A stretch of DNA of 64,000 bases from a virus (IMGVR_UViG_3300013800_000006:11926-75925); one strand, 5' to 3'; positions 605-37,698 are shown, numbered from the stretch's first letter. Notes: a model not told the origin generated them from the letters alone. A program made the numbers and translations.

Positions 605-3600
605 TTACCGCTCCAATTGTTTTGCAGCGGCCACTAAAGTTTTTATTTCATCTCGTGGAGATTTCATATTAACAACCTTATTTCCAATATGTAAACGAAC
701 ATCCACAAGTCCACTGGAGTCCACACTACCCGTATTTAGATTAGGAGTCAAGTATTGATTCATTCCAGCTAACGCCAAATTCGGGAAACCTTCAATAGCT
801 CCACCAAATGCTCTAAATTGCAGTAATCCAGAATTAAGTGAATTTAAAAACTGTAAGCCATATCGTTCTACCATCGATTTACGAACGACATACTCACCCG
901 GAGTTAGCATAGCAGGAACAGTATCTTCATTACCTGAACCGGGAACGATAGAACCTCGTAGTTTGCTCAAAATGGTAGAACCACCAGTAGCAAACCGACG
1001 AATTTGTGCTAATCCGCCTCGTGCAAACGCTTGTAAAACTTCAACTAATCCACCTTTATTATAACCACCTAATTTGTTCATAGATTGATTATGATTCACT
1101 AGATTAGTAATCACATCAATATTGACAGTCTTTTTATCATAACCCACTAACTGTTTAAGATAATCAATCGTTTGAGTTACTGCGGAATCTTCAGTTTTAA
1201 CGGGCACAGTAGTAGGTGTAGTACTCAATAATGATTTAAGTTCTTCAACTTTAGAATAAGCTGTATTTAATGAACTAAAATCAAATTGAACCGGAGTGCC
1301 ATCAAGACTATTAGCAAAATCCGTAATCTTCTGTTTAAACTGATCTAATACACTAGAATCAATATGAACTCCTGCTGTCGCATCTGTTTGAAATTGAGTG
1401 ACTTGATCTTGTAAATCTTTAAGTTTTGTTTCTACATCCGGGTTGATATAAAAACCAAACTCTTGTTTACGTACATCAGCAAGATGGTTTTGAAACTCTG
1501 TGAGTTTATCCGAAACAGTCGTCAGGGTTTGTTCAGCTCCAACTGAAATGACTGGTACATCCGCAGCAGATTTTTTAGTTGTATCATACTGTTTAAAAGC
1601 TTCAGTAAGCGCCATAATTCCATTAGTGGTTTTATTAAAGTTGCCAATATCGACTATATCCGTTAAAGGTCCTTTATTACTAAGATCATCACGAGTCTTA
1701 ACCAATTGATCCAATTGAGCTTGAATTTGAGATCCACCCAAACCTTTACCAAAATTGTCAAACACTTTACCAGACTGTTGACGTACATCATTCAATGTAC
1801 TAATTACATTGGAAATAGATTCTTGATTGACTTTGAGTGTCAATTGGTTGTTATTAGTGGATGCCAACAACCCATCTATATAATTGCTTACCGTGTCCAT
1901 CCGCTGTAATTGATCTGGAGTAAATAAATCAATTTTAGCGGCATTGGCTTTATCTTGTAATGCACTCAAATTCGCCAACTCTTTTTGGACATTTTGCAGT
2001 GCAGCAACATCGGTTTGTAGATTTAATGGAGCAACATCTGTTTTGACTTCAACAGTTGGTAACTCCTTACTAGACTCCGCAATTTGTTGGACAGTTGTAC
2101 CAAAATCAGGTTGTTGCACTGTAGTAGGAATCGTGACCGGTTCAATCGTATTTTGCATGGCCGATTGAATTGCCGGTCCCGCTTGTTGCACTTCTTTTAC
2201 AATTGTATCTGCATTAGTTTGTAATGAAACATCAATTGTTTTAATAGGCTGCTCCGCAACTGATTTAACATCTTTAATATCGGATGTTGTTATTTGTGCG
2301 GCATCACCTGTCCGTTTCAACGCATCGGTTACTTGATCTGACGAGCCAGTAAGTTCTTTAAGAGCAGGAGCCACTTCTTCTAAAACTTTACGGGTCTCAA
2401 CTAATGCTTGAGTAGGTGCTTGACCTTTAGTACCGGATACACCAATTCTCAAATCCCGTAGAGGATCTGCTTTTGCCGCAATTTCAGTCAGTTTAACTCC
2501 AACAGTGTTAAAAGAATTAACCATCCCATCAATTTTAGTCGTATCTAAATTACCTAAAATCTCTCGCATCTTAGTTAATCGATCTATATCAACCTCTAAA
2601 ACGTCCCCCACGCTTTTATCAATAAGTACACCACCTTTAGAATCAATACTTAAAGAATCACGAGCTTTACGAACTTTATCTAATTCATCATAAAATTGTT
2701 TTGGAATAGAAAGATCGGCTTTGGAATAAGTATCCATCAACTCATTAAGTCCTTTTTCATAACCGGAAAGAGCTTGAGTAATTGCTTCAAGCTGCTTTTG
2801 ACCGTCACTTCCATCTTTAGTCACGTCTTTTAATGTAGTACCAACAGTAACACCTTCGGGTAACTGGTTAGTACTAATTGAATTAGTAAGTTTACTTAAT
2901 TCTGTATAAGCAGCTTTTAACTGATTAACAGAATCCAATTGTTTTTGTGCACTCTCAGCATCTTGCTTATTACGTGATGATTGATCTCGTGCTTTTTCAA
3001 GTCCAATTTGCTGATTTTGGATCTTTTCCATATCCGCCAATGCTTGATCTGTATTTAAACCAATTGACAAAGGCTTTTCAAACATCCGATCCAATTCTAA
3101 TTTCTTTTCAGCAATTGCCGAAAGCTTGGCAATTGCGTTGCCATCATCAAATTTAAGATCAATACTTTTGGCATTATCTTTTTGTAACTGGATTAAACTA
3201 GTTGCTAAATCTTTCAAATCTTTTTCAACATTTGAAAGATCATTTGAAAATCCAGCTAACATATCTTCAAGACCTTTAGCAGTCTTTTCTAAAGTTGTTT
3301 GTTGGGCATCACCTGCTAATTTCAGCCGGTCACTAACATTCCCCATGCCTTTTTCAACAGTATTCAAACTATCTGTTACAAACTGTTTAGATTGTTGATC
3401 CCAAGGTTCTAGTGACAAGCCTTCAATTTTAGACATAGCTTGCTCATAAAGAGCTTTTGCTTTATCTAAATTGCCAGCCGTAGACTCTAAAGACGCTTGA
3501 TCCGTAAGTTGCTGAATTTGTAATTTCTGTTTGGCTAACTTTTGAGCATCATTCAATCCAGAATTTTCAAGCTCATCCCGTTTAGCATTAGCACGAGAAA

Positions 3601-6600
3601 TAAAAGATTGCTTATCTTCTTCAATCTTTTTAATTTTATCAGCATTTGATTTATAAAGTTCTTTTACCCTATCCAGTGCTGACTGAACGGATTGGATACC
3701 TTTCAAATCCAAATCACGTCGTTTTGTTGCAAATTCTTGCTCCACTTTAATTCTATCGGCTGATCCAATTTTATATAAAGGTAGGATAGAATTGTAATGA
3801 GCAGCAATTTCAGTTTTCTCTTTATTCAGACCCGAAGTAATAATTTTAGTTTTTTCATTCTCCAATCTAACTTTCGAGTCAAATAGTTTTTGATCAAATG
3901 TAATCGAGTACTGTAAAAAGACTCCAGTCTCCTTCTTTGCATCCGCTACAAAGTACCGAATTGCATCAGACCCATATTTGACCGCACCATTAATAGAAGT
4001 ATTAAATCCTGAGTATTCAGCTTCTAATCGGACTGGAATCGTATAAACATTTTCAGTTACACTAGATGTTGCTCTAGTCAAATCATCAATTTGCCGTTCT
4101 AAGCTATTATGATAATAACTATACATCTGACTAGCAGTATCATTAGCAATTTTCTTTTGCTCACCTTGATATGAAGCAAATGTTGTAAATACATCTTTAT
4201 TGACGGCTTTAACGTTTTTACCCCAACCTATCGCAGCACCCGATAATGTAGAAAATGTAGAATCTCCCAAGGCCGCCGTTGTGCTATAAGTTGCTTTAAT
4301 TTGGGTCAGTGCAAATTCAGTTTGTTGTTGAATTGCTGAAATGCCCACATCCATTTTGGCTTTAGAAGCATTTGCAATTAAATCTCGATACTTGATAAAT
4401 GCATCCGCATTATCCTTATAAATCTGCATGACCTTTTTCAAATCTTCCATACGAGTGGTCAATTCACTGACTTGAGTATCAGATGTTTTTATCATCTGTG
4501 CAACAAGGCGCTGCATTGCAGAGAATTGATTACTCAGAGTTACTTCTGCGGAAACTTTATTTGCTTCCGTTTTAACTTGCTCCATCGTAGATTGTAGCGA
4601 TTCGCGTACTTTAGCCAGTAACGCCGATTTATCAGCGGAATTTAAAGTAAAAATGCCTTGCATGAAGCTAGGCATCCAACCGCGTAACCAATAAGGTGTA
4701 TTAGCTTGATCCAAATCCTTTTCAATCTGCTTCATAACCGAATCAGTATCCACTACACCATGGGCTACTTTTATAGACGCAATGGCATCCGTAATAATAG
4801 AACTAACAGTCTTGCTAAATATAGCTGCTTTTTGTTTTATCGATTCAGTTTTAGCAAAAGAATTTTGGAGTTCACTATCTAACGTTTCAATTAAAGTTGA
4901 AAAATCAAATTTAGTAGGTACTACATTAAAAATAGAACTCTCAACTTTTTGCAAGTTTTCTCTAGCCTGTTGTATAGCATCCTCATCATTGCTGTTCTTA
5001 GCAACATCAAGAGCTGCTTCCGCAGCAACATACATTTGTTTCAATTGAAGCAATTGAGCATAATAAGCTTGAGTGTCCGACAATTCTTTTTGACTACTAG
5101 CTCTACTTGTATAGCTAGTATCTTGAACCACTCGCAAATGTTCCCGAAGCTTATTAATAAACTTTTCTTCAGCCGCAATCGCAGCGTCTTTATTCGCATA
5201 CGTTGCAACTGCATTATTTAATACGGATACTGACTGAGCTAAATCATTAGCCACAGTCTTACTAGACAACATTTCTGTAGAAAATGTTGTCAAAACTTGT
5301 CCAGTTTCCGCAGTAATAACCTTTAATCCAGTAACTTGCCCAGTTAATGTGTCAAATGTCTTTTCAAGATTTAATCCTTTTTTAACTTGATCAGAGGATT
5401 CATTATAACGAGTAACAACCTCATCCAATAACTTTTTAAATTTAGTAGTTTGTTCTTGAACACTCGACAAATTTAAAAGTTTACTTGTATCTAATTTAAC
5501 ATTCTGGTTATTAATCGCTTGCAAACTTACACCAACAGTTGCAATCTTTTTACCCAAATTTTCAAATTCTTTAGTACTATTAACCGCAATAGCTGCTTGA
5601 CGATCTAATTCAGCATTTACTGTGGTCATATTTTGCACTAAATAGAAAGTAACTCCTGCTAAAGTCGTTAATGCCGTAATAAACAAACCTATTGGAGTCG
5701 TAACCAGTGCTAAAGATAAAGCACGAAGTACAGCCACAAATCCAGCCAAACCACTACCCGCTTTAACCGCAGCCGCCCACGTTTCAGCTTGAGAAATAGC
5801 TAAAGCTTGACCTGATAAAGCGGCTGCAATCTGTGCATCTCTAACAACTAATAAAGCAGATGCAGTTTTAGTCAATACAACCCATAATGTTTGTAGAATA
5901 GCTCCAAATTTAGCAGCCGGAACGAGCATCATGGACCATGCTAATGCAACCGTACCAATACCCAGTACCAATACGGCAAAGCCTGCTACCAAATTATCAA
6001 TAATAGGTGTTAATGGTCCTAAAGCTTCACGAATTACTAAGATTTTACTAACAAAAGCAGTGGCGATTTCCACAACAGGTTTAAGGGCCATACTTAAACT
6101 ATGGCCGATTGACTCCCCTAATACCCCTAAGCTGTTACTTAGAATTTGCATCCGTCCCGCAAATGTCTTTTCCATCATTGCAGCTAAACGAGCTGTAGAT
6201 CCTTCCGCACCACTTAAATCAGATTCTAATTCTTTTAATTTATCAGAACCAATTTGCAATAGCGCGGCCATACCAGGACCGGCACGCTGACCAAACAGTT
6301 CTAATACTTCATTAGTTTGAACACCAGCTTCTTCAAACTGTTGTAACAAACTCACAAAACCAACAAACTTACCTTTAGAATCAGTAATTTGTAATCCAGC
6401 ACCACCAATTCGGCGACTGAGTTCTTCCATGACTCGTGATTCTTCTTTAGTGGGATTCAATAACGCCTGGAATGAACCACGTAAGGCTGTACCCGCTAAA
6501 CTACCTCTTAAACCGGCATTGTGAAGTAAAGCAACGGCTGCCGCAGTATCTGTAATATCATTTTGCATTGTACCAGCAATGGAACCTACGTATTTAAACG

Positions 6601-9600
6601 AAGTTCCCATATCTTCCAGCGTTGCCGTTGTGCGAATAGCCGCCATCGACAAAATATCAGATGCTTTTCCAACATCTTCTACAGCTAGTCTCTGACTAGA
6701 CATCAACTGTACAACAGTATTAGTCGCGGAACCTAAATTGGTTTCGGCGGCGGTTGCAAGTTGTAGTACAGTGGGTAAAGCTGTTATCTGTTGTTCAACA
6801 TCATAACCAGCTAATGCAAGTTGTTTAAAGCCATCTGCTGCTTGTTCAGCACCATAACGAGTTGTACTACCAATCGTTTCTGTCGTTTTTCCAAGATTTT
6901 CAATAGAAGCTTCAGTTTCTCCTGTAGCTCCTCTAATAAACGTTAAAGTATCTTCTAATTTACTAAATGCTTCTAATCCTTTTTGAAACGGCTCAATCAT
7001 AGCTTGCCCTAACATCTGCAAGCCCATCGTCATCATTTCCATATTTCTCATGCTGCCGACTAGATCATTTTCTAGTTTACGGACAGCCGAAGCAACTAAA
7101 TCAGTTTTGTTTTGAACTTCTCCCAAACTACCCGCTAGTTTGGAAGCATTCTGATTTAGCATTAAAGTAAATAAGGATCTTAACCCTTTAGATAAAAACG
7201 CGGCTTTATCATCTGCTTCATGCATAGATGAAGCAATATCACCATAACCTTTTAAAACAGTAGAGCTTGGAGAAGATCTATTAATAGTTTCCCGAAGTGT
7301 TGCTGACGCTTCCCGTGTGCGTTCTAATTCAATCCTTAAACTTTCTGCTCGATTACGAGCAGCTTCCAAAGATGCTGTATTAATAGAAAAACCCGCTTGA
7401 GCGGCGGACTCAGCTAAGTGTATAGACTTGGTAATTTCAATATATGACCTAGATAACTCATCTGCTTTAATTCGCAAATCATCCATGAAAGATTGTAATA
7501 CTTCACGAGGCTTAGTTTCAAAATTGGTTCGCATCAAACCAATCTGAGTACCCGCCTTAATCAAATCATCTACTAAGGTTCGTATTGCAAAATCAAATGA
7601 AGTTCCAAAATTAGAGGTAGCACTAGCAGTACCTTGTAATGACTTTTCAGCTTGTTGGATTGCTTCATTTAACCGAATAACAGGTGCTACTGCGGTTTCT
7701 AATTCTTTTACTTTAGTACCAAGAGTTTCAACAGTGGCCGGAATGTTTTTAACATCTTGACCTAGTAAATTAAATGCTTCATCAGCAGCTTTAGCCGCTT
7801 GTTGAAGTTGTGTAAGATCACCACCTGTTCCAACAGTCCTAATTGCAGTTTGCATAGCCGAATCCAAACGATTCCGTGCATTAGCAACTTCCGCAATTAA
7901 AGATTGACGTTCCGCAATTAACCGACTGGTTTCCGTTTTAATTTCTTTTAGAGTATCGGAACTAACACCCGATTGACCCAAACGAGACAAAGATTGTTCA
8001 GAACTTTGAACCGCAGCATTTAACTGTGTAAACTGGTTTTTTAATTCTTGTAATCGACCGGTTTGCTGCAACAAAATATCAAGAGAAGCACCACCTTTTT
8101 GCAATCCAACATTAATAGCCGCAGTCTGTTCCGTAACTTGTTTGCGTACTGCCTCTAATGCTGAAAGATTTACTGGACTAGAACTCATTCTCCGTTCAGC
8201 TTCAATCACCGATTGAATAGCGTCATAAACAGATTGTAAGTTCTTTTTATAATCACTATAAACATTTTGTAGTGAAGAAAAATCAGTTGCCGCAGTCGCA
8301 GCTTGTTTAAAAGCACCTGAGATTTTTATAATCTCAGCTTCATACTGTTTGGCAGCTTCTATCCCACTGGTCGGAATTTGAGCTGACCCAATAGATTCAG
8401 CTAATCGACGGTATTCTGTATCAACCAATTTTGCACTAGATGCAAACCCAATTAAATTATTCTTAGAATCCGATACACTTTGCTTTAATCGATTTAATCC
8501 ATCAATTAAATCTTGTAATGAATTTACTTTAATATCACTGACACTAATTCCTTTTAATTGCTTAGGTAATTCAGCGCCAGTCCGGGCTAAATCCGAAAAC
8601 TTTTTAATAGCAGAATCAATAATTTTACTATTTCTATTTAATACTTCATCAAAAATATCGAACTCTTTTACAATCGTAGCAACAGATGTATTAACCGAAG
8701 ATGTAGATTTAATAAAACGGTCTTGGGCATCAAGTGCTTCTTGAAATCCGGTTTGTACAGATGTTACCCAAGTTTTGTAAATAATAGATTGATTAGATAC
8801 TTCTTTTCCATTACGGATAATAGTATCCGTCAAATCGTTTAGCTTAGTAACAGTCTCCTGCCAACTTTGAACAGCTTGAGTTTGAGATTTACTAACTTTT
8901 CCAGTTGCAGACGCTGCATCTAAATTTGCTTTTTCAACAGAATAGATGGTATTAACATAATCCTGAACGATTTTTATTAAAGATGAAAAATCGCTAAATG
9001 ATTCTTTTACTCCATTAATAGAAACAGTTGCAATATTCCCTTTGACTGTAGTAACAAACTTTGTATAAATTTTAGTAAGATCGTTAACTAATTTAATAGG
9101 ATCTTTAAGCCCATTTAACAAATGGGATAAGCTTGTCGCGATGGGATTAGTTAATTTAGATTCGCCTAACGATAAAATACCAGATCGAACGCGAACCAGT
9201 CCATCAACCACTAATTTTTCAAATGTCTCAGTCGCTTTAGCAGTTTGTACTAACGAAGCATCGATATGATCCGTTCTAATCTTGGCAATTTCAGAGTTTA
9301 GATTTTGAAATTGTCTGGATAATTGTAATACACGAGATTGAGCAGCACTGAGTTCCAAACTCAGTTGAGAACCAAAAACTTGACTGCCATCTTCTCGTTT
9401 TGAAAGGTCATATAACCCTTTCAACTTTAATGTAAGCTGTTCTAGTGATTGTTCTAATAATTTAGCAGTGGTTTCAGTTTTAGAAAAGCCACCAAAAGTT
9501 TCAGGCTGTTTCCCAGCCGTTGCAAATACATTATTTAAACCTTGTACAGCAACAGCCAATCGATTAACTTTTGTTGTTTCCGATACTAACGCTGTATCAA

Positions 9601-10708
9601 TTTCTTTAAGACTGGTCTCAGCACTTCGTAGAACTTGTAGTTCTTGCCCAAGTCTATTAACTGCTGTGATTTGACCCGTGAGTGAATTAGTACCATCTAT
9701 CAAATATTTATCAACAATTTCCAATACTTTTTGCAAAGTATATAAATTGTTTACAGATTCACGAGTTCCAGAATTAAAAAGTTTTCCAAACGACGAACTA
9801 TCAGTGGTCAGTCTTTCAAAAATTGGCGCAAGATGATTTAAACCTTTTAATAATGAATCTAAAGCAGCCGTATCGCTACCAAAAGCTTGCTTTAATGAAG
9901 TTTCCCACTGTGTTGTATCATAGGTTAATAATTTAACAACTCGACCAATTGCCGCAAATGATTCTTCGATAACTCCTAATCGATCTTGTTGTAAATCTTT
10001 TAACTCTAATGGCTGTATTGTGATCTTAGCATATTGACTAGCACTTTTAAAAATATCAGTCACAATACTAGTCAATTGGCGTTGCGCGTTTTCTGCCCTT
10101 AACTCAGTAAACGGAACAACAATTGCATCATTAATTGCATCTTTAAAAGGCTGCTTGCGACGACTGACAGCAGCCTTAGCCGCTTCCAATACCGCACCAA
10201 TTTGGGCATCAATAATCGCCGGATCAAGACCATTAATAATGCTATCTTTAACATTTCGCAATGCAGCAACAAGTGTATCAAATACAGGTACTGATTTACC
10301 TCTAGAAGCAGTTGCTAGTGTTGATCCAACTTCAAGTAACGCTTTATCGATAACTTCTACATTAAGAATAGTAGTTTGAGATGCATCCGATAACGATTTA
10401 GCGTACTGCTGTGTCCAATTGCTAATACCATTTTGCAATTGGACAAAATAGTCTTTAATTTCCGGGGTAGATTTTCCAACTTGTCCAGCTAAATTGGAAA
10501 TACTTTTGGCAGCAAGATTGGCTTGCTCAATCAGTTTATCACCGCCAATTCCGGCTTCTACTGATTTTCGCAAGCCATCTAAAACCTTCTGAATCGAGCT
10601 AGCAACTGCTGCGAATGCAGAACTAGTACTAGAAAGATTAGTAGCTTGAGCACTAAGATTGATTAAGACATCAACGACTGTTTGTTTTACATCAGCCATT
10701 ATCTCCAA
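605..10708 (-). CDS. Tail tape measure protein (TP901-type core), 3367 aa
   Basis: Ala/Leu/Gln-rich helical giant ORF after the tail chaperones. TP901-like core (GSTTRYGAEQAADGFKQLALAGY...LHNAGLRGSLAGTALR), central hydrophobic stretch, and C-terminal FATGG...DTVPAMLTPGEYVV motif. Confidence 0.93.
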   Translation of the reverse strand: MEIMADVKQTVVDVLINLSAQATNLSSTSSAFAAVASSIQKVLDGLRKSVEAGIGGDKLIEQANLAAKSISNLAGQVGKSTPEIKDYFVQLQNGISNWTQQYAKSLSDASQTTILNVEVIDKALLEVGSTLATASRGKSVPVFDTLVAALRNVKDSIINGLDPAIIDAQIGAVLEAAKAAVSRRKQPFKDAINDAIVVPFTELRAENAQRQLTSIVTDIFKSASQYAKITIQPLELKDLQQDRLGVIEESFAAIGRVVKLLTYDTTQWETSLKQAFGSDTAALDSLLKGLNHLAPIFERLTTDSSSFGKLFNSGTRESVNNLYTLQKVLEIVDKYLIDGTNSLTGQITAVNRLGQELQVLRSAETSLKEIDTALVSETTKVNRLAVAVQGLNNVFATAGKQPETFGGFSKTETTAKLLEQSLEQLTLKLKGLYDLSKREDGSQVFGSQLSLELSAAQSRVLQLSRQFQNLNSEIAKIRTDHIDASLVQTAKATETFEKLVVDGLVRVRSGILSLGESKLTNPIATSLSHLLNGLKDPIKLVNDLTKIYTKFVTTVKGNIATVSINGVKESFSDFSSLIKIVQDYVNTIYSVEKANLDAASATGKVSKSQTQAVQSWQETVTKLNDLTDTIIRNGKEVSNQSIIYKTWVTSVQTGFQEALDAQDRFIKSTSSVNTSVATIVKEFDIFDEVLNRNSKIIDSAIKKFSDLARTGAELPKQLKGISVSDIKVNSLQDLIDGLNRLKQSVSDSKNNLIGFASSAKLVDTEYRRLAESIGSAQIPTSGIEAAKQYEAEIIKISGAFKQAATAATDFSSLQNVYSDYKKNLQSVYDAIQSVIEAERRMSSSPVNLSALEAVRKQVTEQTAAINVGLQKGGASLDILLQQTGRLQELKNQFTQLNAAVQSSEQSLSRLGQSGVSSDTLKEIKTETSRLIAERQSLIAEVANARNRLDSAMQTAIRTVGTGGDLTQLQQAAKAADEAFNLLGQDVKNIPATVETLGTKVKELETAVAPVIRLNEAIQQAEKSLQGTASATSNFGTSFDFAIRTLVDDLIKAGTQIGLMRTNFETKPREVLQSFMDDLRIKADELSRSYIEITKSIHLAESAAQAGFSINTASLEAARNRAESLRIELERTREASATLRETINRSSPSSTVLKGYGDIASSMHEADDKAAFLSKGLRSLFTLMLNQNASKLAGSLGEVQNKTDLVASAVRKLENDLVGSMRNMEMMTMGLQMLGQAMIEPFQKGLEAFSKLEDTLTFIRGATGETEASIENLGKTTETIGSTTRYGAEQAADGFKQLALAGYDVEQQITALPTVLQLATAAETNLGSATNTVVQLMSSQRLAVEDVGKASDILSMAAIRTTATLEDMGTSFKYVGSIAGTMQNDITDTAAAVALLHNAGLRGSLAGTALRGSFQALLNPTKEESRVMEELSRRIGGAGLQITDSKGKFVGFVSLLQQFEEAGVQTNEVLELFGQRAGPGMAALLQIGSDKLKELESDLSGAEGSTARLAAMMEKTFAGRMQILSNSLGVLGESIGHSLSMALKPVVEIATAFVSKILVIREALGPLTPIIDNLVAGFAVLVLGIGTVALAWSMMLVPAAKFGAILQTLWVVLTKTASALLVVRDAQIAAALSGQALAISQAETWAAAVKAGSGLAGFVAVLRALSLALVTTPIGLFITALTTLAGVTFYLVQNMTTVNAELDRQAAIAVNSTKEFENLGKKIATVGVSLQAINNQNVKLDTSKLLNLSSVQEQTTKFKKLLDEVVTRYNESSDQVKKGLNLEKTFDTLTGQVTGLKVITAETGQVLTTFSTEMLSSKTVANDLAQSVSVLNNAVATYANKDAAIAAEEKFINKLREHLRVVQDTSYTSRASSQKELSDTQAYYAQLLQLKQMYVAAEAALDVAKNSNDEDAIQQARENLQKVESSIFNVVPTKFDFSTLIETLDSELQNSFAKTESIKQKAAIFSKTVSSIITDAIASIKVAHGVVDTDSVMKQIEKDLDQANTPYWLRGWMPSFMQGIFTLNSADKSALLAKVRESLQSTMEQVKTEANKVSAEVTLSNQFSAMQRLVAQMIKTSDTQVSELTTRMEDLKKVMQIYKDNADAFIKYRDLIANASKAKMDVGISAIQQQTEFALTQIKATYSTTAALGDSTFSTLSGAAIGWGKNVKAVNKDVFTTFASYQGEQKKIANDTASQMYSYYHNSLERQIDDLTRATSSVTENVYTIPVRLEAEYSGFNTSINGAVKYGSDAIRYFVADAKKETGVFLQYSITFDQKLFDSKVRLENEKTKIITSGLNKEKTEIAAHYNSILPLYKIGSADRIKVEQEFATKRRDLDLKGIQSVQSALDRVKELYKSNADKIKKIEEDKQSFISRANAKRDELENSGLNDAQKLAKQKLQIQQLTDQASLESTAGNLDKAKALYEQAMSKIEGLSLEPWDQQSKQFVTDSLNTVEKGMGNVSDRLKLAGDAQQTTLEKTAKGLEDMLAGFSNDLSNVEKDLKDLATSLIQLQKDNAKSIDLKFDDGNAIAKLSAIAEKKLELDRMFEKPLSIGLNTDQALADMEKIQNQQIGLEKARDQSSRNKQDAESAQKQLDSVNQLKAAYTELSKLTNSISTNQLPEGVTVGTTLKDVTKDGSDGQKQLEAITQALSGYEKGLNELMDTYSKADLSIPKQFYDELDKVRKARDSLSIDSKGGVLIDKSVGDVLEVDIDRLTKMREILGNLDTTKIDGMVNSFNTVGVKLTEIAAKADPLRDLRIGVSGTKGQAPTQALVETRKVLEEVAPALKELTGSSDQVTDALKRTGDAAQITTSDIKDVKSVAEQPIKTIDVSLQTNADTIVKEVQQAGPAIQSAMQNTIEPVTIPTTVQQPDFGTTVQQIAESSKELPTVEVKTDVAPLNLQTDVAALQNVQKELANLSALQDKANAAKIDLFTPDQLQRMDTVSNYIDGLLASTNNNQLTLKVNQESISNVISTLNDVRQQSGKVFDNFGKGLGGSQIQAQLDQLVKTRDDLSNKGPLTDIVDIGNFNKTTNGIMALTEAFKQYDTTKKSAADVPVISVGAEQTLTTVSDKLTEFQNHLADVRKQEFGFYINPDVETKLKDLQDQVTQFQTDATAGVHIDSSVLDQFKQKITDFANSLDGTPVQFDFSSLNTAYSKVEELKSLLSTTPTTVPVKTEDSAVTQTIDYLKQLVGYDKKTVNIDVITNLVNHNQSMNKLGGYNKGGLVEVLQAFARGGLAQIRRFATGGSTILSKLRGSIVPGSGNEDTVPAMLTPGEYVVRKSMVERYGLQFLNSLNSGLLQFRAFGGAIEGFPNLALAGMNQYLTPNLNTGSVDSSGLVDVRLHIGNKVVNMKSPRDEIKTLVAAAKQLER

Positions 10709-32230: not shown

Positions 32231-32644
32231 TCAACGATAATCCAAATAATCTGGGTTGACCACGCTTTTCCCAACAGCCTTCCCCCACGCCAACAATTGA
32301 CCTTCATCGTATCGCACCGGGGGGTTGCGACCTCCACCCAATACCTGTTTAGGTAATCCTAACTTCCTCACCCAGTGATAGACGGTCATCGTGGTAATAT
32401 CAAACATTCGACACACTTGCCGAATCGTTAAAAGTGTCCCGTTATGACAGTCTCGCCATTGACTATCATCTACCTCCATAAACTCAACCCGGTTATGAAC
32501 CGTTTTCTTCACCTTAGTAGCGAGCACTGCCGCAAGGGGAGGTGCCTTTTCAAAATCCTGATCCTCTAATATCCTCTGCTCCACCCGGATCGGAGCGGCT
32601 GGCTTCTGATTCAAAATCTGTCTCAAATCACGTCTAATCATCAT
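32231..32644 (-). CDS. Excisionase/MerR-like HTH DNA-binding protein
   Basis: LLTIRQVCRMFDITTMTVYHWVRK...VRYD. Start placed at the ATGA overlap with the queE stop. Confidence 0.7.
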   Translation of the reverse strand: MMIRRDLRQILNQKPAAPIRVEQRILEDQDFEKAPPLAAVLATKVKKTVHNRVEFMEVDDSQWRDCHNGTLLTIRQVCRMFDITTMTVYHWVRKLGLPKQVLGGGRNPPVRYDEGQLLAWGKAVGKSVVNPDYLDYR

Positions 32645-33267
32645 GGCACCTGAATATATTTGTGTACTTGAATATTGAGTCGGTATCCAAACGTCTGACA
32701 ACTATGAATAGCCGCTTTTAAGTTTTCTGCGTAATGATCATCCCAGCAAGGTCCTACCCAAATGTTAGAGTTACGTGGCTTCGCCACACCTACGGGCAAC
32801 CCATCGGTATCGACCTTATCTGCTTCTAATACATATTTCCAACAAAAAGCCTTCTCCGAAATAATGGGTTGGACTTTCCCCGTTTTAGGTGAACATACAA
32901 TCATACACCGTTCTAAGAATGGAATAATTTGAGGATGACACACGGCACCACTGGTTTCTATCTGAATCTTCCAATTAAATCCAAGAGTGTTGATCAACTG
33001 ACCCACTTGTCCTTGACGTAACGGTTCCCCTCCCGTAATGACCAATAACCGATGACTCAACGCTTGTAAGTGTTCCACCAATTCGTCACAGTCAACCCGG
33101 TCCCCCGATGCGTACTCCGTATCACAAAATCCACAACGCAGTACACAACCGCTCAATCGAAGAAATACAGCCGGGTATCCGGTTAGTGGACCTTCTCCCT
33201 GAATGGTCTCAAATAAAGAATTGACAATCAGACCGTCTTCCATCCCCACAATCGGTTGATTATTCAT
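32641..33267 (-). CDS. queE: 7-carboxy-7-deazaguanine synthase QueE (radical SAM)
   Basis: TIQGEG...VFLRLSGCVLRCGFCDT (CxxxCxxC), ITGGEP, IETSG, SPK and QVHKY motifs. Confidence 0.9.
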   Translation of the reverse strand: MNNQPIVGMEDGLIVNSLFETIQGEGPLTGYPAVFLRLSGCVLRCGFCDTEYASGDRVDCDELVEHLQALSHRLLVITGGEPLRQGQVGQLINTLGFNWKIQIETSGAVCHPQIIPFLERCMIVCSPKTGKVQPIISEKAFCWKYVLEADKVDTDGLPVGVAKPRNSNIWVGPCWDDHYAENLKAAIHSCQTFGYRLNIQVHKYIQVP

Positions 33268-33767
33268 ATTGAGACCTCTGCAGAACTACTCTCAGTTTCT
33301 TCCCAGCGTACAGCCACACAAAATAGCCCACTCGGCAACCAGCCGTTCAGCCAAGTCATTAGGCAGATGCTCAAGTTTTCAGAGGTCGGTTCATTGTCCA
33401 TCAATACGAGTCCATCTATCACTTCAGCGAATGCTCCGTCTTGTTCAGTTTCAAATAGTTCAAATGGTCCCACCAGTTTTGATGTGTATGGGGCTTGTTT
33501 GAGGAGTAAAGGCACTAATGGATCATGCCGGTCTAAGATCATTTTATGATCTAGTAATTCCAAGCAGGTTTTAAAGCGTTTGAGATGATTAAAATCTAAT
33601 ACCATTCCATTGACAAGTGACCCGGAACAGCCTACAGAAATGGCAATACGCCCACTGTGTCCGTGTAAATGCCGACACTGGCACGGGGGCACTTGCTGAT
33701 TCCACAAGCGATGCCCGTATACTAGATTAAATACTTTGGTGATAGATAACATCAATGAAAACTCCAT
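33264..33767 (-). CDS. queD: 6-carboxytetrahydropterin synthase QueD
   Basis: GHRL...CRHLHGHS, MVLDF, DHKMI, PTSEN and WEET motifs. Confidence 0.9.
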   Translation of the reverse strand: MEFSLMLSITKVFNLVYGHRLWNQQVPPCQCRHLHGHSGRIAISVGCSGSLVNGMVLDFNHLKRFKTCLELLDHKMILDRHDPLVPLLLKQAPYTSKLVGPFELFETEQDGAFAEVIDGLVLMDNEPTSENLSICLMTWLNGWLPSGLFCVAVRWEETESSSAEVSI

Positions 33768-33931
33768 GGGTGGAAGTCGTTAGTTTATAATATGTAAAAT
33801 GGGGTGTCAAGCAAGGCGTTAGTAGAAATATTATAAAAATCTTGGAAATGGAAATGGTGAAATAAAAGAGGCCATGACGCCTGCGGCGTCATTCTACCAC
33901 TCGGTTTAACGGTTGAAGCGAGTACCCCGTG

Positions 33932-34139
33932 TTTGATTTTATGAGAAGTATAGTGATTATAAAGTTAAAGTTATGGAAGGCGTAGTAGGTGGAAATGAAA
34001 ATGAAAATGGCACCATTTATTTTAAATCAAACTCAAAATCGAAATCAAACTCAAAATGGAATCCGGCTCTAGTATTAAGTATTTGATTTTATGGGAATTA
34101 TAGTGATTATAAAGTTATGGTTATGGAAGGCGTGGTGAG
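33932..34139 (+). repeat. Imperfect ~57-bp direct repeat (33932-33988 and 34082-34139)
   Basis: TTTGATTTTATG.GAA.TATAGTGATTATAAAGTTA..GTTATGGAAGGCGT.GT occurs twice. A short tandem AATCAAACTCAAAAT repeat lies between the copies. Confidence 0.8.
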
Positions 34140-34559
34140 TTGAGATTGGGAGGAGGGTTTGCAGTATTACTAACCGTTAGTGTCAGCGATGTTTGAAAAA
34201 CGTCACCCAGCCGTACCCATACAGTGCATTATTCGATGATCATCGAAGCATGTGATTGATTTTTAAAGTAAATTAATCAAACAACATGTGACAATCTTTG
34301 TCACTGTAACAATAACGATACATAAAATATTATTCATTAGTACAATCAATCACTTATGTCATTACATAAATATCCGTGTTATGTAATTACACTATTTAAT
34401 ACGATATGAATTAATGAATTAAAAAACTTTTTAAATTAATTACTCAATAACAACAAACACTTAGCTTAATATTGTGGTTGCTTAGGTTAAGCAATGGTAA
34501 GCTTGGCACTAACACTGCATTATCATACGCAACGCAACACAAGTTAAACTGAAAAGGGG

Positions 34560-34694
34560 ATGGCATTGAAAGCTGCAATCGTGTTCTGTATTTTAGTTAT
34601 TACAAGCGTATATGCGATGGATTGTTTTAAAGATATGATGGTTGGCATTGTTGACCACCATCATCAACAAATTGAACTGGCAAGCAACCAGTAA
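34560..34694 (+). CDS. Small 44-aa membrane/secreted peptide
   Basis: Below the ORF-track cutoff. MALKAAIVFCILVITSVYAMDCFKD..., RBS AAAGGGG, stop abuts the next gene. Confidence 0.45.
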   Translation: MALKAAIVFCILVITSVYAMDCFKDMMVGIVDHHHQQIELASNQ

Positions 34695-34696
34695 AG

Positions 34697-35020
34697 GTGA
34701 CGACAATGAAACTTAACATAGTGAGTATCTCAAGGCAGTATAATCAGGCGATAACCTTACCGGCTAAAGAGGTTCGTTATGTCCGAGGGTTGCTTCCGTT
34801 AGGGAAAATAGTAGCTTCCCGGCAGGGCTATATCGGTAATACCATGAATGGCTGGAGTGCGTTTGAGGTTATTGTTAAAGATAAAAACGGGTTGTGGGTT
34901 TGTTACCCACAACCAACACAAATAGGTGATTATGCATCATATCGCCTGTTGAGTGACTCACCAGAATTTGTCAAGAAAACAGCAAGTAATTTGCTTACAA
35001 TAAGTAAGCAAATTAGATAG
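34697..35020 (+). CDS. Hypothetical protein (cassette 1)
   Basis: 107 aa, ends immediately before repeat copy 1. Confidence 0.6.
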   Translation: MTTMKLNIVSISRQYNQAITLPAKEVRYVRGLLPLGKIVASRQGYIGNTMNGWSAFEVIVKDKNGLWVCYPQPTQIGDYASYRLLSDSPEFVKKTASNLLTISKQIR

Positions 35021-35026
35021 TAGACA

Positions 35027-35104
35027 AGCCATGGGTGGCTTACCCTATTAGTGCTTATTCTAAGCACTAATAGGAGCGTACTAGAGTCCGCTTAGTAGAC
35101 TCTA
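35027..35104 (+). repeat. Three-hairpin intergenic element, copy 1
   Basis: AGCC-ATGGGT-GGCT; CCTATTAGTGCTTA-TTC-TAAGCACTAATAGG; TAGAGTC-CGCTTAGTA-GACTCTA. Confidence 0.9.
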
Positions 35105-35117
35105 AACAAACTGGGAG

Positions 35118-35543
35118 TTGAAGAACATGAGCATGAAACTATACGCATTGTGTCAAAATTCTTACACATTCGGACAGACTGGTGTTGGTTGCCATGTGGC
35201 GACCAGCGACGAGGAAATCGTGGCATCGGCGACGCTGTGGGATAACAATAGGATATGGGAGGTTTACGAGGAAAAAGAGAAGTTCATGCGTGTGCTTCAA
35301 CCCACCCTGCACGTACTGGCTGGTACTCAATGGGTTGCCATGCCCATTGAGCCTACCGTCCATGGGTTCGACGGGATGGTAAAAATCCTACGGGATAGGA
35401 CGCCATCGCAGGCATACATTCAAGCCGGTGAAGGCGTGCGGTTTGTGTTCAGTGATACCGTACCAGTGTTGGCAAAGGGTCATACTGACTATGACCCGGC
35501 AAACCTTAACCACCAGCGCGCCCTATTAGGAGGTAAGGCTTGA
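35118..35543 (+). CDS. Hypothetical protein (cassette 2)
   Basis: 141 aa flanked by repeat copies 1 and 2, with an SD GGGAG. Confidence 0.65.
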   Translation: MKNMSMKLYALCQNSYTFGQTGVGCHVATSDEEIVASATLWDNNRIWEVYEEKEKFMRVLQPTLHVLAGTQWVAMPIEPTVHGFDGMVKILRDRTPSQAYIQAGEGVRFVFSDTVPVLAKGHTDYDPANLNHQRALLGGKA

Positions 35544-35548
35544 TCTAC

Positions 35549-35627
35549 AGCCATGGATGGCTTACCCTATTAGTGCTTATTCTAAGCACTAATAGGAGCG
35601 TATCGAGTACCCGCTTAGTAGGTACTC
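35549..35627 (+). repeat. Three-hairpin intergenic element, copy 2
   Basis: AGCC-ATGGAT-GGCT; same 14-bp stem as copy 1; GAGTACC-CGCTTAGTA-GGTACTC. Confidence 0.9.
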
Positions 35628-35640
35628 TCAATAAAGTGGA

Positions 35641-36414
35641 GTGAATACGATGAATGCTAATCAAAAAGCCGCTGTTACTATGATGCTTTCCATCATGGCG
35701 GAAGGGACTTGCCAAGAGTTTGGCAAATATAGTAAGGATAGTGTCGAGTACTTCACCGCCAAGCTAGAACAAGTGCAATCAGGCAGGATAGGACATGGTG
35801 GAAACCCCCACGGGTATTTCATCATCGGGTTGTCCCCTAGTAGCAAGCGTGGACAGGAAAATGCCGCCCGTCAATTCCGCTTTGCCTTGAGCAAGGGAAT
35901 GACTAACAAAGCGCACCTTGCTTGCCGTGGCTTGGGTGACACCGGCACCGAGTCAGCAATCAATGCTGGTGCGTTCTTCAGCTATCCAAAACAGAATAGC
36001 CGTCTTGGCGACACGGCCATGCGCCGAGTCGCGCATGGCATCGCATCCGATGCCCGGAAGGGAGAAGATGTAGGACGGAAAACCAGTGCACTATTTCTCG
36101 CGCTAACAGACGCGGACGCTGCGGAAGCGGCACTAGCTTTTATCCGTAAGGGTGCGGAAAAAATCCGCACGGCGCTAAATATTGAGCATGACACGTGGTT
36201 GGATCAACTCATAGAGTCCATCCCCCAAATGGGGGAACAGGAAACACAAGACGAAAACTTGAATCACTGGATCAATGGTATCTTAGCAGAGCTGCCAGAC
36301 ATCAAACCCGATGATGAACGGATGCTCGTCGAATCCGTTAAGCGGGTATCTGCTAAAAAGAACCCCAAACCCGTCAAAAGTAAGCTAACCTTGGAGAAAA
36401 CTAAGGCAGCATAA
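35641..36414 (+). CDS. Hypothetical protein (cassette 3)
   Basis: 257 aa flanked by copies 2 and 3. Confidence 0.65.
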   Translation: MNTMNANQKAAVTMMLSIMAEGTCQEFGKYSKDSVEYFTAKLEQVQSGRIGHGGNPHGYFIIGLSPSSKRGQENAARQFRFALSKGMTNKAHLACRGLGDTGTESAINAGAFFSYPKQNSRLGDTAMRRVAHGIASDARKGEDVGRKTSALFLALTDADAAEAALAFIRKGAEKIRTALNIEHDTWLDQLIESIPQMGEQETQDENLNHWINGILAELPDIKPDDERMLVESVKRVSAKKNPKPVKSKLTLEKTKAA

Positions 36415-36421
36415 TAGAACA

Positions 36422-36499
36422 AGCCATGGATGGCTTACCTATTAATGCTTAACATAAGCACTAATAGGAGCGTATCGAGTACCCGCTTAGTAGGTACTC
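36422..36499 (+). repeat. Three-hairpin intergenic element, copy 3
   Basis: AGCC-ATGGAT-GGCT; CCTATTAATGCTTA-ACA-TAAGCACTAATAGG; GAGTACC-CGCTTAGTA-GGTACTC. Confidence 0.9.
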
Positions 36500-36521
36500 T
36501 CATGGTTAGGAGTTTAAGATT

Positions 36522-36800
36522 ATGTTTTACTATTTTTATGTAGAACAAGAAGACAAACGTATTGCCTTTTGCGTATCTGAGACGGAACTTGATGTTGGTT
36601 ATATAGTACCACTGGACAAAGAAATAATAATTGCCCAAGGGAATCTACCTGATTCTAATGAATACCTCATTAAGTCAAAATGCTTTAAAAAAACATTAGA
36701 GCTAGCATGTCAGCTAGCGGGTTACTCACTAGAGCCTTATAATATAACCCCATTAGAGTATGTGAGCACAGAAGAATTTGTCTATTGGTTTAACTCTTAA
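36522..36800 (+). CDS. Hypothetical protein (cassette 4)
   Basis: 92 aa, SD AGGAG. Confidence 0.6.
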   Translation: MFYYFYVEQEDKRIAFCVSETELDVGYIVPLDKEIIIAQGNLPDSNEYLIKSKCFKKTLELACQLAGYSLEPYNITPLEYVSTEEFVYWFNS

Positions 36801-36807
36801 TAGAATT

Positions 36808-36884
36808 AGCCATGGACGGCTTACCCTATAATTGCTTAGATTAAGCAATTATAGGAGCGTACTAGAGTCCGCTTAGTAGACTCT
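36808..36884 (+). repeat. Three-hairpin intergenic element, copy 4
   Basis: AGCC-ATGGAC-GGCT; CCTATAATTGCTTA-GAT-TAAGCAATTATAGG; AGAGTC-CGCTTAGTA-GACTCT. Confidence 0.9.
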
Positions 36885-36908
36885 TACCAAAAACGGGAGT
36901 TTAAAAAC

Positions 36909-37103
36909 ATGTTACAAATTGATCCAACTCGCCATTATCCTACATTTTTAGTGATCGTAAAGGATTATTTTGACCACATTCAAGTCAAAGAGTCTAATAA
37001 GTATTTTACAAACGAGAAGCAGGCTAGAAACTATGCACAAAATAATACGCGGTTCCTGCGTGCTGGTACATACTCAAAGGGACAAGTGCATGTATTAGGT
37101 TAA
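36909..37103 (+). CDS. Hypothetical protein (cassette 5)
   Basis: 64 aa, SD GGGAG. Confidence 0.6.
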   Translation: MLQIDPTRHYPTFLVIVKDYFDHIQVKESNKYFTNEKQARNYAQNNTRFLRAGTYSKGQVHVLG

Positions 37104-37110
37104 TCTACCA

Positions 37111-37188
37111 AGCCAAGGATGGCGTACCTATAATCGCTTAATCTAAGCGCTTATAGGAGCGTATCGAGTACCCGCTTAGTAGGTACTC
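37111..37188 (+). repeat. Three-hairpin intergenic element, copy 5
   Basis: GCC-AAGGAT-GGC; CCTATAATCGCTTA-ATC-TAAGCGCTTATAGG; GAGTACC-CGCTTAGTA-GGTACTC. Confidence 0.9.
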
Positions 37189-37209
37189 TCATGGTTAGGA
37201 AATAATACT

Positions 37210-37548
37210 ATGAACAATCAATATTATTTGTGTGGTAAAGTCTATTTTGAAGCCATCAAACCGATGTTTAAACAGATGTTGATTTATATCCCAAGTCATT
37301 GGGACGATTTTTGTAACACCTTTTATATCTCTATCCCTGATGATGAACCAACACAAAACTATTTAGAAGGATGGCAAGGATTAAGAGAGGAAATCCTTAC
37401 TAAATTGTTTAGATTGAATATCCTCGTGTACCAGAATGAAATCTATGAAATCTTCCGTAGATTAGGCGAACAATCATTACTTTTAATGTTAATCCATCAA
37501 CACCATGCTTATTGTAAGCAGGTAGGTGACACCATTTTAGAATTATAA
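37210..37548 (+). CDS. Hypothetical protein (cassette 6)
   Basis: 112 aa following copy 5. Confidence 0.6.
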   Translation: MNNQYYLCGKVYFEAIKPMFKQMLIYIPSHWDDFCNTFYISIPDDEPTQNYLEGWQGLREEILTKLFRLNILVYQNEIYEIFRRLGEQSLLLMLIHQHHAYCKQVGDTILEL

Positions 37549-37582
37549 AACTGTATCATTTATGATACTATGATACATAGTA

Positions 37583-37698
37583 GTGACATCGCTTTAAACG
37601 CCCCAAATCGGCGATTTTAGCCACCCATCCCATAACCCACTACCCAACCATGGGTAGTGGGTTTAAATGTCACCACGGCCCGTTTTGGTGGCTTAAAA
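37583..37698 (+). repeat. Second intergenic repeat family, copy A
   Basis: GTGACATCGCTTTAAACGCCCCAAATCGGCGATTTTAGCC...CACCACGGCCCGTTTTGGTGGCTTAAAA, with an internal 13-bp stem AACCCACTACCCA/TGGGTAGTGGGTT. Confidence 0.8.

Follow-up and report, generated by a model that had tools for sequence, protein, structure and literature searches.

A repeated, covarying spacer element between small genes of an uncultured wastewater phage

Known repeats between phage genes

Elements repeated between neighbouring genes are already known in other phages, as RNase III sites in T7, promoter-early stem-loops (PeSLs) in T4-type phages, and start-associated sequences (SAS) and their extended form (ESAS) in mycobacteriophages. 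A further element of this kind is found in IMGVR_UViG_3300013800_000006:11926-75925, a stretch of 64,000 nucleotides (the window) that comprises bases 11926-75925 of a 75,925-bp IMG/VR contig with a CheckV completeness of 51%. The element is about 80 bases long. It consists of two hairpins and a small predicted pseudoknot, and it occupies the interval from a stop codon to the following ribosome-binding site. This spacer family is undescribed; new in it are the pseudoknot, a hairpin with an ANGGA loop, and a palindrome that occurs in two contexts.

In phage T7 (R0.3-R1.3) and in the Bacillus phages SP82 and SPO1, RNase III signals lie between early genes, each in the form of an irregular two-turn hairpin with an internal loop. 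The element resembles these signals as a repeated structured RNA in the gaps between genes that are probably early and co-transcribed, one at each junction. It would likewise leave a hairpin at the end of the upstream message, and the family is again specific to one phage group. Unlike the T7 sites, it has three domains, among them the pseudoknot and the ANGGA hairpin. Its hairpin 2 is a 14-bp helix, perfect in three of the five window copies, closed by a 3-nt loop and strictly invariant at top and base, rather than a two-turn imperfect helix, and about 21 bp would be reached only if it stacks on a neighbouring helix. Cleavage may be proposed by analogy, and the core of the hairpin also occurs outside intercistronic positions.

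A T4-type PeSL combines a consensus sigma-70 promoter, preceded by an AT-rich upstream tract, with a G/C-rich terminator stem-loop (PMC2839356, PMC4122927). Both PeSLs and the element are short conserved repeats that flank ORFans (orphan genes) in a plastic region. In both cases the repeats bound insertions, deletions and replacements, and chimeric repeats mark crossovers, including crossovers in the loops of stem-loops. The promoter and terminator of a PeSL have no counterpart here: the five copies contain no promoter-like or terminator-like site on the + strand, their stems are rich in A/U, and none of the three hairpins is followed by a T-run. The element also differs in lying in a siphovirus-like genome and in showing RNA-type covariation with a pseudoknot. 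It evolves like the T4-type PeSLs and, by analogy, may work like the T7/SP82 intercistronic hairpins.

In Cluster K mycobacteriophages, the SAS is GGGATAGGAGCCC, which sits 3-8 bp away from the start codon and is itself the Shine-Dalgarno (SD) sequence (PMC3203893). The SAS/ESAS pair and the element share a conserved motif placed before many genes in one orientation, with a free-spacer inverted repeat just upstream of an AGGAG block. The block here is ATAGGAGCGTA, and the shared part is ATAGGAGC. In the element, however, this block lies about 45 nt upstream of a separate SD, and the hosts and phages are unrelated.

Five copies in one operon

The element occurs in five copies (35027-35103, 35549-35627, 36422-36499, 36808-36884 and 37111-37188), all on the + strand, which is the gene strand. 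The original prediction, made by a model from the DNA alone, had described five copies within 35027-37188, each beginning a few bases after a stop codon and ending before the next SD. This description is accurate. Copies start 3-8 nt after the stop codon and end 8-20 nt before a GGAG/AGGA SD, which lies 8-9 nt from the ATG. AGGAGCGTA and CGCTTAGTAG each occur five times without mismatch in the window, always inside elements, and no sixth copy was found anywhere in the 75,925-bp contig. The copies are made up as follows, with scores in bits from the covariance model described below.

35018-35129, + strand: copy 1 with flanks, 97.6 bits; tandem stops TAG-TAG 35018-35023
35027-35040, + strand: copy 1, hairpin 1
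35044-35074, + strand: copy 1, hairpin 2, with core GCTTA-TTC-TAAGC at 35053-35065
35075-35082, + strand: copy 1, linker AGCGTACT
35083-35103, + strand: copy 1, hairpin 3, formed by AGAGTC (35083-35088), loop CGCTTAGTA (35089-35097) and GACTCT (35098-35103)
35113-35117, + strand: copy 1, SD GGGAG, followed by ATG at 35127
35541-35652, + strand: copy 2 with flanks, 106.4 bits; stop TGA 35541-35543, ATG 35650
35549-35604, + strand: copy 2, hairpin 1 (35549-35562), hairpin 2 (35566-35596) and linker AGCGTATC (35597-35604)
35605-35627, + strand: copy 2, hairpin 3, formed by GAGTACC (35605-35611), loop (35612-35620) and GGTACTC (35621-35627)
36412-36524, + strand: copy 3 with flanks, 100.2 bits; stops TAA-TAG 36412-36417, ATG 36522
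36422-36476, + strand: copy 3, hairpin 1 (36422-36435), hairpin 2 (36438-36468) and linker (36469-36476)
36477-36499, + strand: copy 3, hairpin 3, formed by arms 36477-36483 and 36493-36499 with loop 36484-36492
36798-36911, + strand: copy 4 with flanks, 93.3 bits; stops TAA-TAG 36798-36803, ATG 36909
36808-36863, + strand: copy 4, hairpin 1 (36808-36821), hairpin 2 (36825-36855) and linker (36856-36863)
36864-36884, + strand: copy 4, hairpin 3, formed by AGAGTC (36864-36869), loop (36870-36878) and GACTCT (36879-36884)
37101-37212, + strand: copy 5 with flanks, 95.3 bits; stop TAA 37101-37103, ATG 37210
37111-37165, + strand: copy 5, hairpin 1 (37111-37124), hairpin 2 (37127-37157, one U.C mismatch) and linker (37158-37165)
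37166-37188, + strand: copy 5, hairpin 3, formed by arms 37166-37172 and 37182-37188 with loop 37173-37181

Tandem in-frame stops precede three of the five copies, and most copies in relatives have the upstream context TA(A/G)-TA(A/G)-A-N-N-A. Since this context is shared, the stop codon of the preceding gene appears to be part of the repeated unit.

Neither a sigma-70-like promoter nor an intrinsic terminator recurs on the + strand inside the five copies, and no sigma-54 promoter was found inside the elements. Four + strand promoter-like sites within 34300-37600 all lie outside the copies and do not recur. The absence of recurring internal signals on this strand fits one long transcript.

The element had been thought not to be a described motif, and this is borne out by Rfam, which gave no match at gathering thresholds or in permissive single-copy searches. 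The best permissive matches were generic hairpins, scoring 12-16 bits against cut-offs of 44-100. A preQ1 riboswitch, suggested by the adjacent QueD/QueE genes and the small pseudoknot, was rejected for lack of Rfam support. A leader peptide starting at an AUG in hairpin 1 was rejected because the reading frames are inconsistent among copies.

Folding and covariation

The structural alignment holds 22 distinct copies from the window and its relatives. These copies are linked by recombination, and counts of alignment cells therefore overstate the number of independent events. Base pairs are formed in 95.9% of cells, and two-sided changes are found at 8 of the 26 pairs. None of 500 shuffles reaches either value, and slid controls are 26-44% paired. 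The z-scores of the RNA folds against shuffles range from -3.6 to -4.9. Covariation across homologues, which the original prediction had named as a check, is thus present.

Hairpin 1. This is the weakest helix. It is 88% paired, with one two-sided pair change within the window's clade.

Hairpin 2. The second hairpin has a 14-bp stem and a 3-nt loop. It had been reported as a covarying stem with a free loop, and both quoted versions are correct, but the stem is perfect only in copies 1, 2 and 4. Copies 3 and 5 carry a single mismatch each, at stem position 8; that of copy 3 is an A.C in a recombinant of two stem variants. The framework CCUA....GCUUA-NNN-UAAGC....UAGG is invariant at the base and top of the stem. 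The variable parts are the loop and five central pairs (UUAGU, UAAUU, AAUAU, UUAAU and others).

Hairpin 3. The window has two versions of this stem, as first described: AGAGTC/GACTCT in copies 1 and 4, and GAGTACC/GGTACTC in copies 2, 3 and 5, around the loop CGCTTAGTA. Among all copies, the 5' arms AGAGUC, AGAAUC, GAGUACC and GAGUAUC, and GAGUGCU in a distant clade, each have a matching 3' arm. Compensatory changes are seen in hairpins 2 and 3 across the 22 copies.

Pseudoknot. The loop of hairpin 3 had been called invariant. Its sequence is as given, but it is not simply a loop: of its nine bases, the first four (CGCU) pair with the complementary AGCG of the linker, and together with hairpin 3 this helix makes a predicted H-type pseudoknot. 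The earlier description had missed it. In contigs L138 and L140, CGCC:GGCG replaces AGCG:CGCU, with 2 of the 4 pairs changed on both sides and all cells pairing. Stem S1 has 4 bp and is 100% paired, and S2 has 7 bp, of which five are changed on both sides. The 3' domain as a whole is 96.8% paired, with two-sided changes in 7 of 11 pairs, which none of 500 shuffles matches. The pseudoknot begins right after the last pair of hairpin 2, has loops of 3-4, 0 and 5 nt, and is sterically ordinary.

The distant clade to which L138 and L140 belong has three hairpins with different stem sequences upstream of its homologue of the operon's third gene (ORF3). Its hairpin 2 contains two + strand G.U pairs, which would be A.C mismatches on the opposite strand. 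The claim that selection acts on a folded single strand is thus upheld, both by the compensatory changes in hairpins 2 and 3 and the pseudoknot and by the architecture kept in this clade. One caveat is that the hairpin-2 top is found outside the elements as well, and a protein-binding site, perhaps in DNA, may account for some of its conservation.

In the minimum-energy fold of copy 4, the SD is instead paired with the 3' arm of hairpin 3. Uniform sequestration of the SD by this arm was considered and rejected, as it applies to copy 4 and a few relatives and is not general.

Relatives and the exchange of cassettes

The elements separate the open reading frames (ORFs) of one operon, whose families were compared across relatives.

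34560-37548, + strand: operon of seven co-oriented small ORFs
34560-34694, + strand: ORF0, 44 aa
34697-35020, + strand: ORF1
35127-35543, + strand: ORF2, 138 aa
35650-36414, + strand: ORF3, 254 aa
36522-36800, + strand: ORF4, 92 aa
36909-37103, + strand: ORF5, 64 aa
37210-37548, + strand: ORF6, 112 aa

The ORF3 protein has 18 relatives with 52-88% identity. A covariance model was built from the 22 distinct copies. In the window's clade (ORF3 identity at least 66%, several contigs being fragments) it finds 1-6 copies per contig at 76-109 bits, and in the L138/L140/L141 clade it finds weaker, clearly homologous versions at 27-37 bits. It gave no match on 128 unrelated loci from over-loose pattern scans; these 120 metagenome and 8 genome-collection pattern matches were single chance matches and were rejected. 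A search of a phage collection for element DNA gave no match, and pattern and protein scans of IMG/VR gave one related contig only. The covariance-model results indicate that the element is specific to this phage lineage, as far as sampled.

Among seven related contigs, five arrangements occur, and whole element+ORF units account for every difference between them. The arrangements below come from a clustering of array ORFs across the relatives; E stands for an element, and each F-number for a family of ORFs.

Window: F2-F9-E-F5-E-F1-E-F10-E-F3-E-F4
L133: F2-E-F5-E-F1-E-F3-E-F7-E-F4
L134: F2-F9-E-F1-E-F3-E-F4
L153: F2-E-F5-E-F1-E-F10-E-F3-E-F4
L154: F2-E-F5-E-F1-E-F3-E-F4
L155: F2-E-F1-E-F3-E-F4

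At the DNA level, comparison of these contigs shows that ORFs have been gained, lost and re-headed at elements. Copy 4 of the window, which heads ORF5, is nearly identical to an L133 copy that heads ORF3. In L134, an ORF3-type leader with the first three codons (MNA) is fused ahead of the ORF6 homologue, giving MNA-MNNQYY... Some copies are chimeric, with arms from different variants, namely hairpin 3 of L153a and L153b and hairpin 2 of w3, L153e, L154c and G1d. The hairpin-2 chimeras show both reciprocal mismatch types (A.C and G.T) at the same position.

Crossovers are found at two or more different places inside the element and at several points along the stop-to-start unit. Repeats of this unit, about 105 bp long and about 85% identical, give homologous exchange a substrate. 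The suggestion that the element could be a cassette recombination site therefore holds in part: relatives do differ by whole element+ORF units, but crossovers are scattered, and a dedicated machinery was not seen. No tyrosine integrase or recombinase (Phage_integrase) was found on the half-genome contig. No attC R''/L''...L'/R' boxes (RYYYAAC/GTTRRRY) bound the copies in the alignment, and the stem of hairpin 2 has no bulges and thus lacks the extrahelical bases of the attC type. Taken together, the scattered crossovers and the lack of a tyrosine recombinase and of attC boxes look like ordinary homologous recombination rather than a dedicated site.

A possible module at cistron boundaries

The reading preferred here, tentatively, sees the element as a module at cistron boundaries of a polycistronic mRNA, acting in processing, stability or translation, while the repeated DNA also drives the shuffling of cassettes. 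It draws on the covarying structure, on hairpin 1, on the shuffling, and on where the copies sit: always on the gene strand, from just after a stop codon to just before an SD, and nowhere but in this operon. The fold, the placement, the shuffling and the absence of internal promoters and terminators are established by sequence comparison.

Such a module would separate the fates of neighbouring cistrons. The long hairpin might be bound or cut by a sequence-specific factor, either the host's RNase III or a protein, encoded by phage or host, that reads the GCUUA/UAAGC helix. The upstream message would then carry hairpin 1 as a cap at its 3' end, and the downstream message the pseudoknot at its 5' end, while the three GGA motifs in each gap could give a CsrA-type regulator a handle on translation.

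Several points weigh against this reading. A perfect 14-bp stem with a 3-nt loop is unlike the irregular two-turn hairpin of T7 RNase III sites. The core of hairpin 2 also occurs near a sigma-54-like block and inside a translated ORF, where an RNA role is doubtful, and in one clade of relatives (L142/L157) its equivalent is a 14-bp palindrome too weak for a stable RNA hairpin. Covariation of the pseudoknot reflects one lineage split only, and in the L138/L140 lineage its pairing can be drawn as a nested alternative helix. Wobble pairs in the window's clade show no + strand bias (5 G.U against 10 A.C); several of the A.C cells are recombinants, and wobble is weak evidence for the strand. Accessibility of the SD varies from 0.01 to 0.9 among copies, so a uniform SD-masking switch is not apparent. 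Four sequencing runs cover the region, all as contigs, and the low-depth contigs from RNA libraries break at the repeats as DNA contigs do, which makes them uninformative on transcript ends or processing.

The core palindrome as a possible DNA operator

The main rival to a cistron-boundary module is an array of DNA operators or roadblocks, in which a dimeric regulator binds GCTTA-N3-TAAGC in the promoter region and before each gene and shuts the operon off in the manner of stoperators. This is rather unlikely, and it may coexist with an RNA role; on this view the hairpins would be partly a by-product of palindromic operators in transcribed DNA.

The distribution of the palindrome speaks for it. 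Seven exact sites occur in 76 kb, where none is expected by chance and a reversed control finds none, and all of them lie within 34480-37519. Five are the tops of hairpin 2. The spacer is fixed in length and free in sequence. The other two sites lie outside the elements, one of them beside a conserved promoter-like block.

34480-34492: extra core palindrome GCTTA-GGT-TAAGC, with 7-bp arms TTGCTTA/TAAGCAA, conserved in relatives
34504-34519, + strand: candidate operon promoter TGGCAC-TAACA-CTGCA of the sigma-54 -24/-12 type, with exact sigma-54 spacing and the GG/GC dinucleotides
37507-37519: extra core palindrome GCTTA-TTG-TAAGC in the 3' end of ORF6 (codons A-Y-C-K-Q), 29 nt before the stop

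The upstream palindrome is 12 bp from the sigma-54-like block and is accompanied by the half-sites GCTTA (34464-34468) and TAAGC (34498-34502). The block is the only sigma-54-type match in the window, where 0.22 are expected by chance, and six relatives, among them those of the clade without the element, keep its TTGGCA and CTGCATTA unchanged. No gene for a sigma-54 activator was found on the half-genome contig. A phage operon driven by sigma-54 would be unusual. The palindrome in ORF6 is kept in L134, L154 and L155, where its spacer has changed synonymously.

A precedent exists in the stoperators of Cluster A mycobacteriophages, where the same site occurs at a promoter and in intergenic gaps, one site per short gap (PMC9283540, PMC6550527). 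Here, too, the core palindrome adjoins the promoter-like block and is present in all five gaps. Stoperators are asymmetric and genome-wide, however, whereas this site is palindromic and confined to one operon, and no repressor was identified.

The L142/L157 clade (ORF3 identity 53-55%) also bears on this question. The three-hairpin element is absent there, and the gaps contain an ANGGAN hairpin, a pyrimidine tract and the palindrome GTTTA-N4-TAAAC. This palindrome, which has no extended stem, takes the equivalent places: it precedes the sigma-54-like block and SDs, and it coincides with the start site of a promoter, TTGACA-17-TACCAT. Both half-sites have changed together in a site that is too weak as RNA, which points to a protein partner and makes a role at the DNA level plausible; the change between clades reflects one or two lineage contrasts.

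An operator leaves other features unexplained. The stem extends with perfect pairing to 11-14 bp in at least five sequences, and hairpin 1, hairpin 3 and the pseudoknot have no place in such a scheme. In the distant clade, the UAAGC/GCUUA pairing lies at the base of a different hairpin, which fits a helix better than a fixed DNA site. The perfect pairing in at least five sequences, the G.U pairs of the distant clade and the two other domains together indicate that the folded strand is also selected. Nor was a candidate binder found. The neighbouring HTH_17 protein was considered and rejected, because its helix-turn-helix recognition region is almost invariant across clades whose palindromes differ.

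A further copy of the palindrome was observed in the distant clade, where TGCTTA-N3-TAAGCA lies inside the ORF3 homologue (L138 5334-5346; also in L140, L141 and L144) in the codons F-A-Y-P-K-Q. The equivalent F-S-Y-P-K-Q of ORF3 in the window uses other codons and has no palindrome site.

Near-consensus sigma-70 promoters were observed in the gaps of the element-less clade (L142 4627-4690; L157 317-383 and 636-665), as TTGACA-16-TAAAAT and as TTGACA-17-TACCAT with a hairpin in the spacer. At equivalent junctions, that clade thus has promoters and the other the structured spacer.

Hairpin 1 and CsrA/RsmA

Next in order is a platform for proteins of the CsrA family. The elements would mainly recruit a host protein of this family through the ANGGA loop, the AGGAG of the linker and the SD. 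Either the cassettes would come under CsrA control, or about 15 GGA sites on a single abundant transcript would titrate CsrA as CsrB/RsmZ do. As the main function of the element, this is improbable.

Its appeal lies in hairpin 1, which has a GC stem of 3-5 bp (4-6 bp in the predicted folds) and an A-N-G-G-A-N apical loop directly after the stop codon(s). The motif C-A-N-G-G-A-N-G is present in 21 of the 22 copies, the exception being copy 1 of the window (GGG). An AUGGA(U/C) loop follows the ORF3 stop in three clades on stems that covary (AGCC/GGCU, GGCC/GGCC and GGGC/GCCC). CsrA prefers AUGGA in apical loops according to cross-linking and immunoprecipitation (CLIP) data (PMC5207318), and known sites such as those of the glgC leader and the CsrB/RsmZ repeats likewise have an ANGGA apical loop on a short hairpin with further GGA motifs nearby, including the SD (PMC5207318). 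Each intercistronic region here has three GGA motifs (hairpin-1 loop, linker AGGAG and SD) about 40-50 nt apart, with hairpin 2 and the pseudoknot standing between successive motifs.

The likeness is limited to hairpin 1, however, and its motif has six specified bases only. The two further conserved domains, with the invariant hairpin-2 core and the pseudoknot, have no CsrA counterpart and are not explained by it. Several intercistronic hairpins of L138/L140 lack hairpin 1. No CsrA gene was found on the half-genome contig.

Other readings

More speculative, and quite improbable, is a new class of catalytic or ligand- or protein-gated RNA that punctuates the polycistronic message, with the same palindrome doubling as a DNA operator at the operon promoter. 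In a catalytic version, hairpin 2, the pseudoknot and about 25 invariant unpaired or helix-end nucleotides would make up a small self-cleaving ribozyme. In a nuclease version, the element would be the signal for a dedicated phage endoribonuclease reading the GCUUA/UAAGC helix.

The least probable reading is a selfish or recombination-only repeat, similar to a miniature inverted-repeat transposable element or to attC, with no regulatory role, in which template switching keeps the palindromes perfect; the correction of quasi-palindromes is a well-established way for mutations to arise, and the gain and loss of cassettes at elements, the chimeric copies and the A.C and G.T mismatches at one hairpin-2 position, as expected from crossovers between variants, all suit it, but the repeat is found in one operon and on one strand only, invariably in the exact interval from stop codon to SD, lacks target-site duplications, terminal inverted repeats of the whole unit, attC R/L boxes and a tyrosine recombinase on the contig, keeps its architecture in a clade with different sequences, and has compensatory changes in the pseudoknot and in hairpin 3 with its invariant 9-nt loop, which template switching cannot yield.

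Significance

Modular operons. Large uncultured phages carry blocks of fast-changing orphan genes, and the element offers a concrete, testable unit of their expression logic. It is a standard stop-to-start connector with a defined fold, by which unrelated small genes can be plugged into one operon.

Gene exchange. The element visibly mediates the exchange of small genes among wastewater phages.

Dual reading. The 13-bp palindrome is both the top of an RNA hairpin and a neighbour of the sigma-54-like block. If both roles are real, this would be an unusual case of one sequence read as DNA and as RNA.

Host regulation. If the ANGGA hairpins bind CsrA, a phage takeover operon would be tied to a global translational regulator of the host.

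Survey of viromes. The covariance model can be used to find the family in activated-sludge viromes.

Genomic setting

The source is a large uncultured wastewater phage, siphovirus-like and not N4-like. Its contig encodes a 3367-aa tape-measure protein, a portal, a terminase and a major tail protein with an Ig domain, together with an intein-laden ribonucleotide reductase, an SbcC-like protein and a primase. Hairpin promoters of the N4 type were considered when the 3367-aa ORF at first suggested an N4 virion RNA polymerase; they were dropped, since the ORF is in fact the tape-measure gene (605-10708, - strand) and the genome siphovirus-like. A tape-measure protein of this length implies an exceptionally long tail.

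No close relative was found among sequenced phages. Near-identical DNA is present in wastewater runs, possibly the source sample itself, and smaller shares of the contig's words occur in many sludge and activated-sludge runs; of these DNA runs, one (X3) was compared with the region. The longest related contigs are about 148 kb.

None of the seven ORFs of the operon has a Pfam or PHROG match, and the operon is probably an early one made of orphan genes. For the conserved 254-aa ORF3 protein, Pfam, PHROG and Atlas gave no lead to a function. Its AlphaFold model is all-helical, with a predicted local distance difference test score (pLDDT) of 69, and has no PDB match at E <= 0.001.

The operon is flanked by a divergent QueD/QueE/HTH block on one side and by a convergent - strand block on the other. 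The divergent block (32641-33767, - strand) contains QueD (PTPS), a radical-SAM QueE-like gene and then the 136-aa HTH_17 protein, and it is also present in relatives L134-L142. QueD and QueE-like genes beside the array suggest 7-deazaguanine modification of the phage DNA.

Between the divergent operons is a non-coding gap of about 800 bp. Its part at 33768-34230 contains a 68-nt direct repeat (33929-33996 and 34079-34146), the copies of which are 85% identical and 150 nt apart. The equivalent gap in L142 (3500-4060) contains many GAAATTGAAATTGAATGAGACGT-like iterons. The gap may serve as an origin of replication or as an enhancer.

Further blocks conserved in all clades lie at 34285-34400, some 200 nt ahead of the operon. 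One is a possible sigma-70 promoter, TTGTCA-N17-CATAAA, which overlaps the palindrome GTGACA-N5-TGTCAC. Another is a 9-bp hairpin that covaries, ATTACATAA/TTATGTAAT versus ATTACGTAA/TTACGTAAT, and a third is TCAAnCACTTA, repeated twice.

In the convergent gap 3' of the operon, at 37617-37650, an 11-bp hairpin CCCACTACCCA-ACCA-TGGGTAGTGGG is followed by TTT. This hairpin may be a bidirectional terminator.

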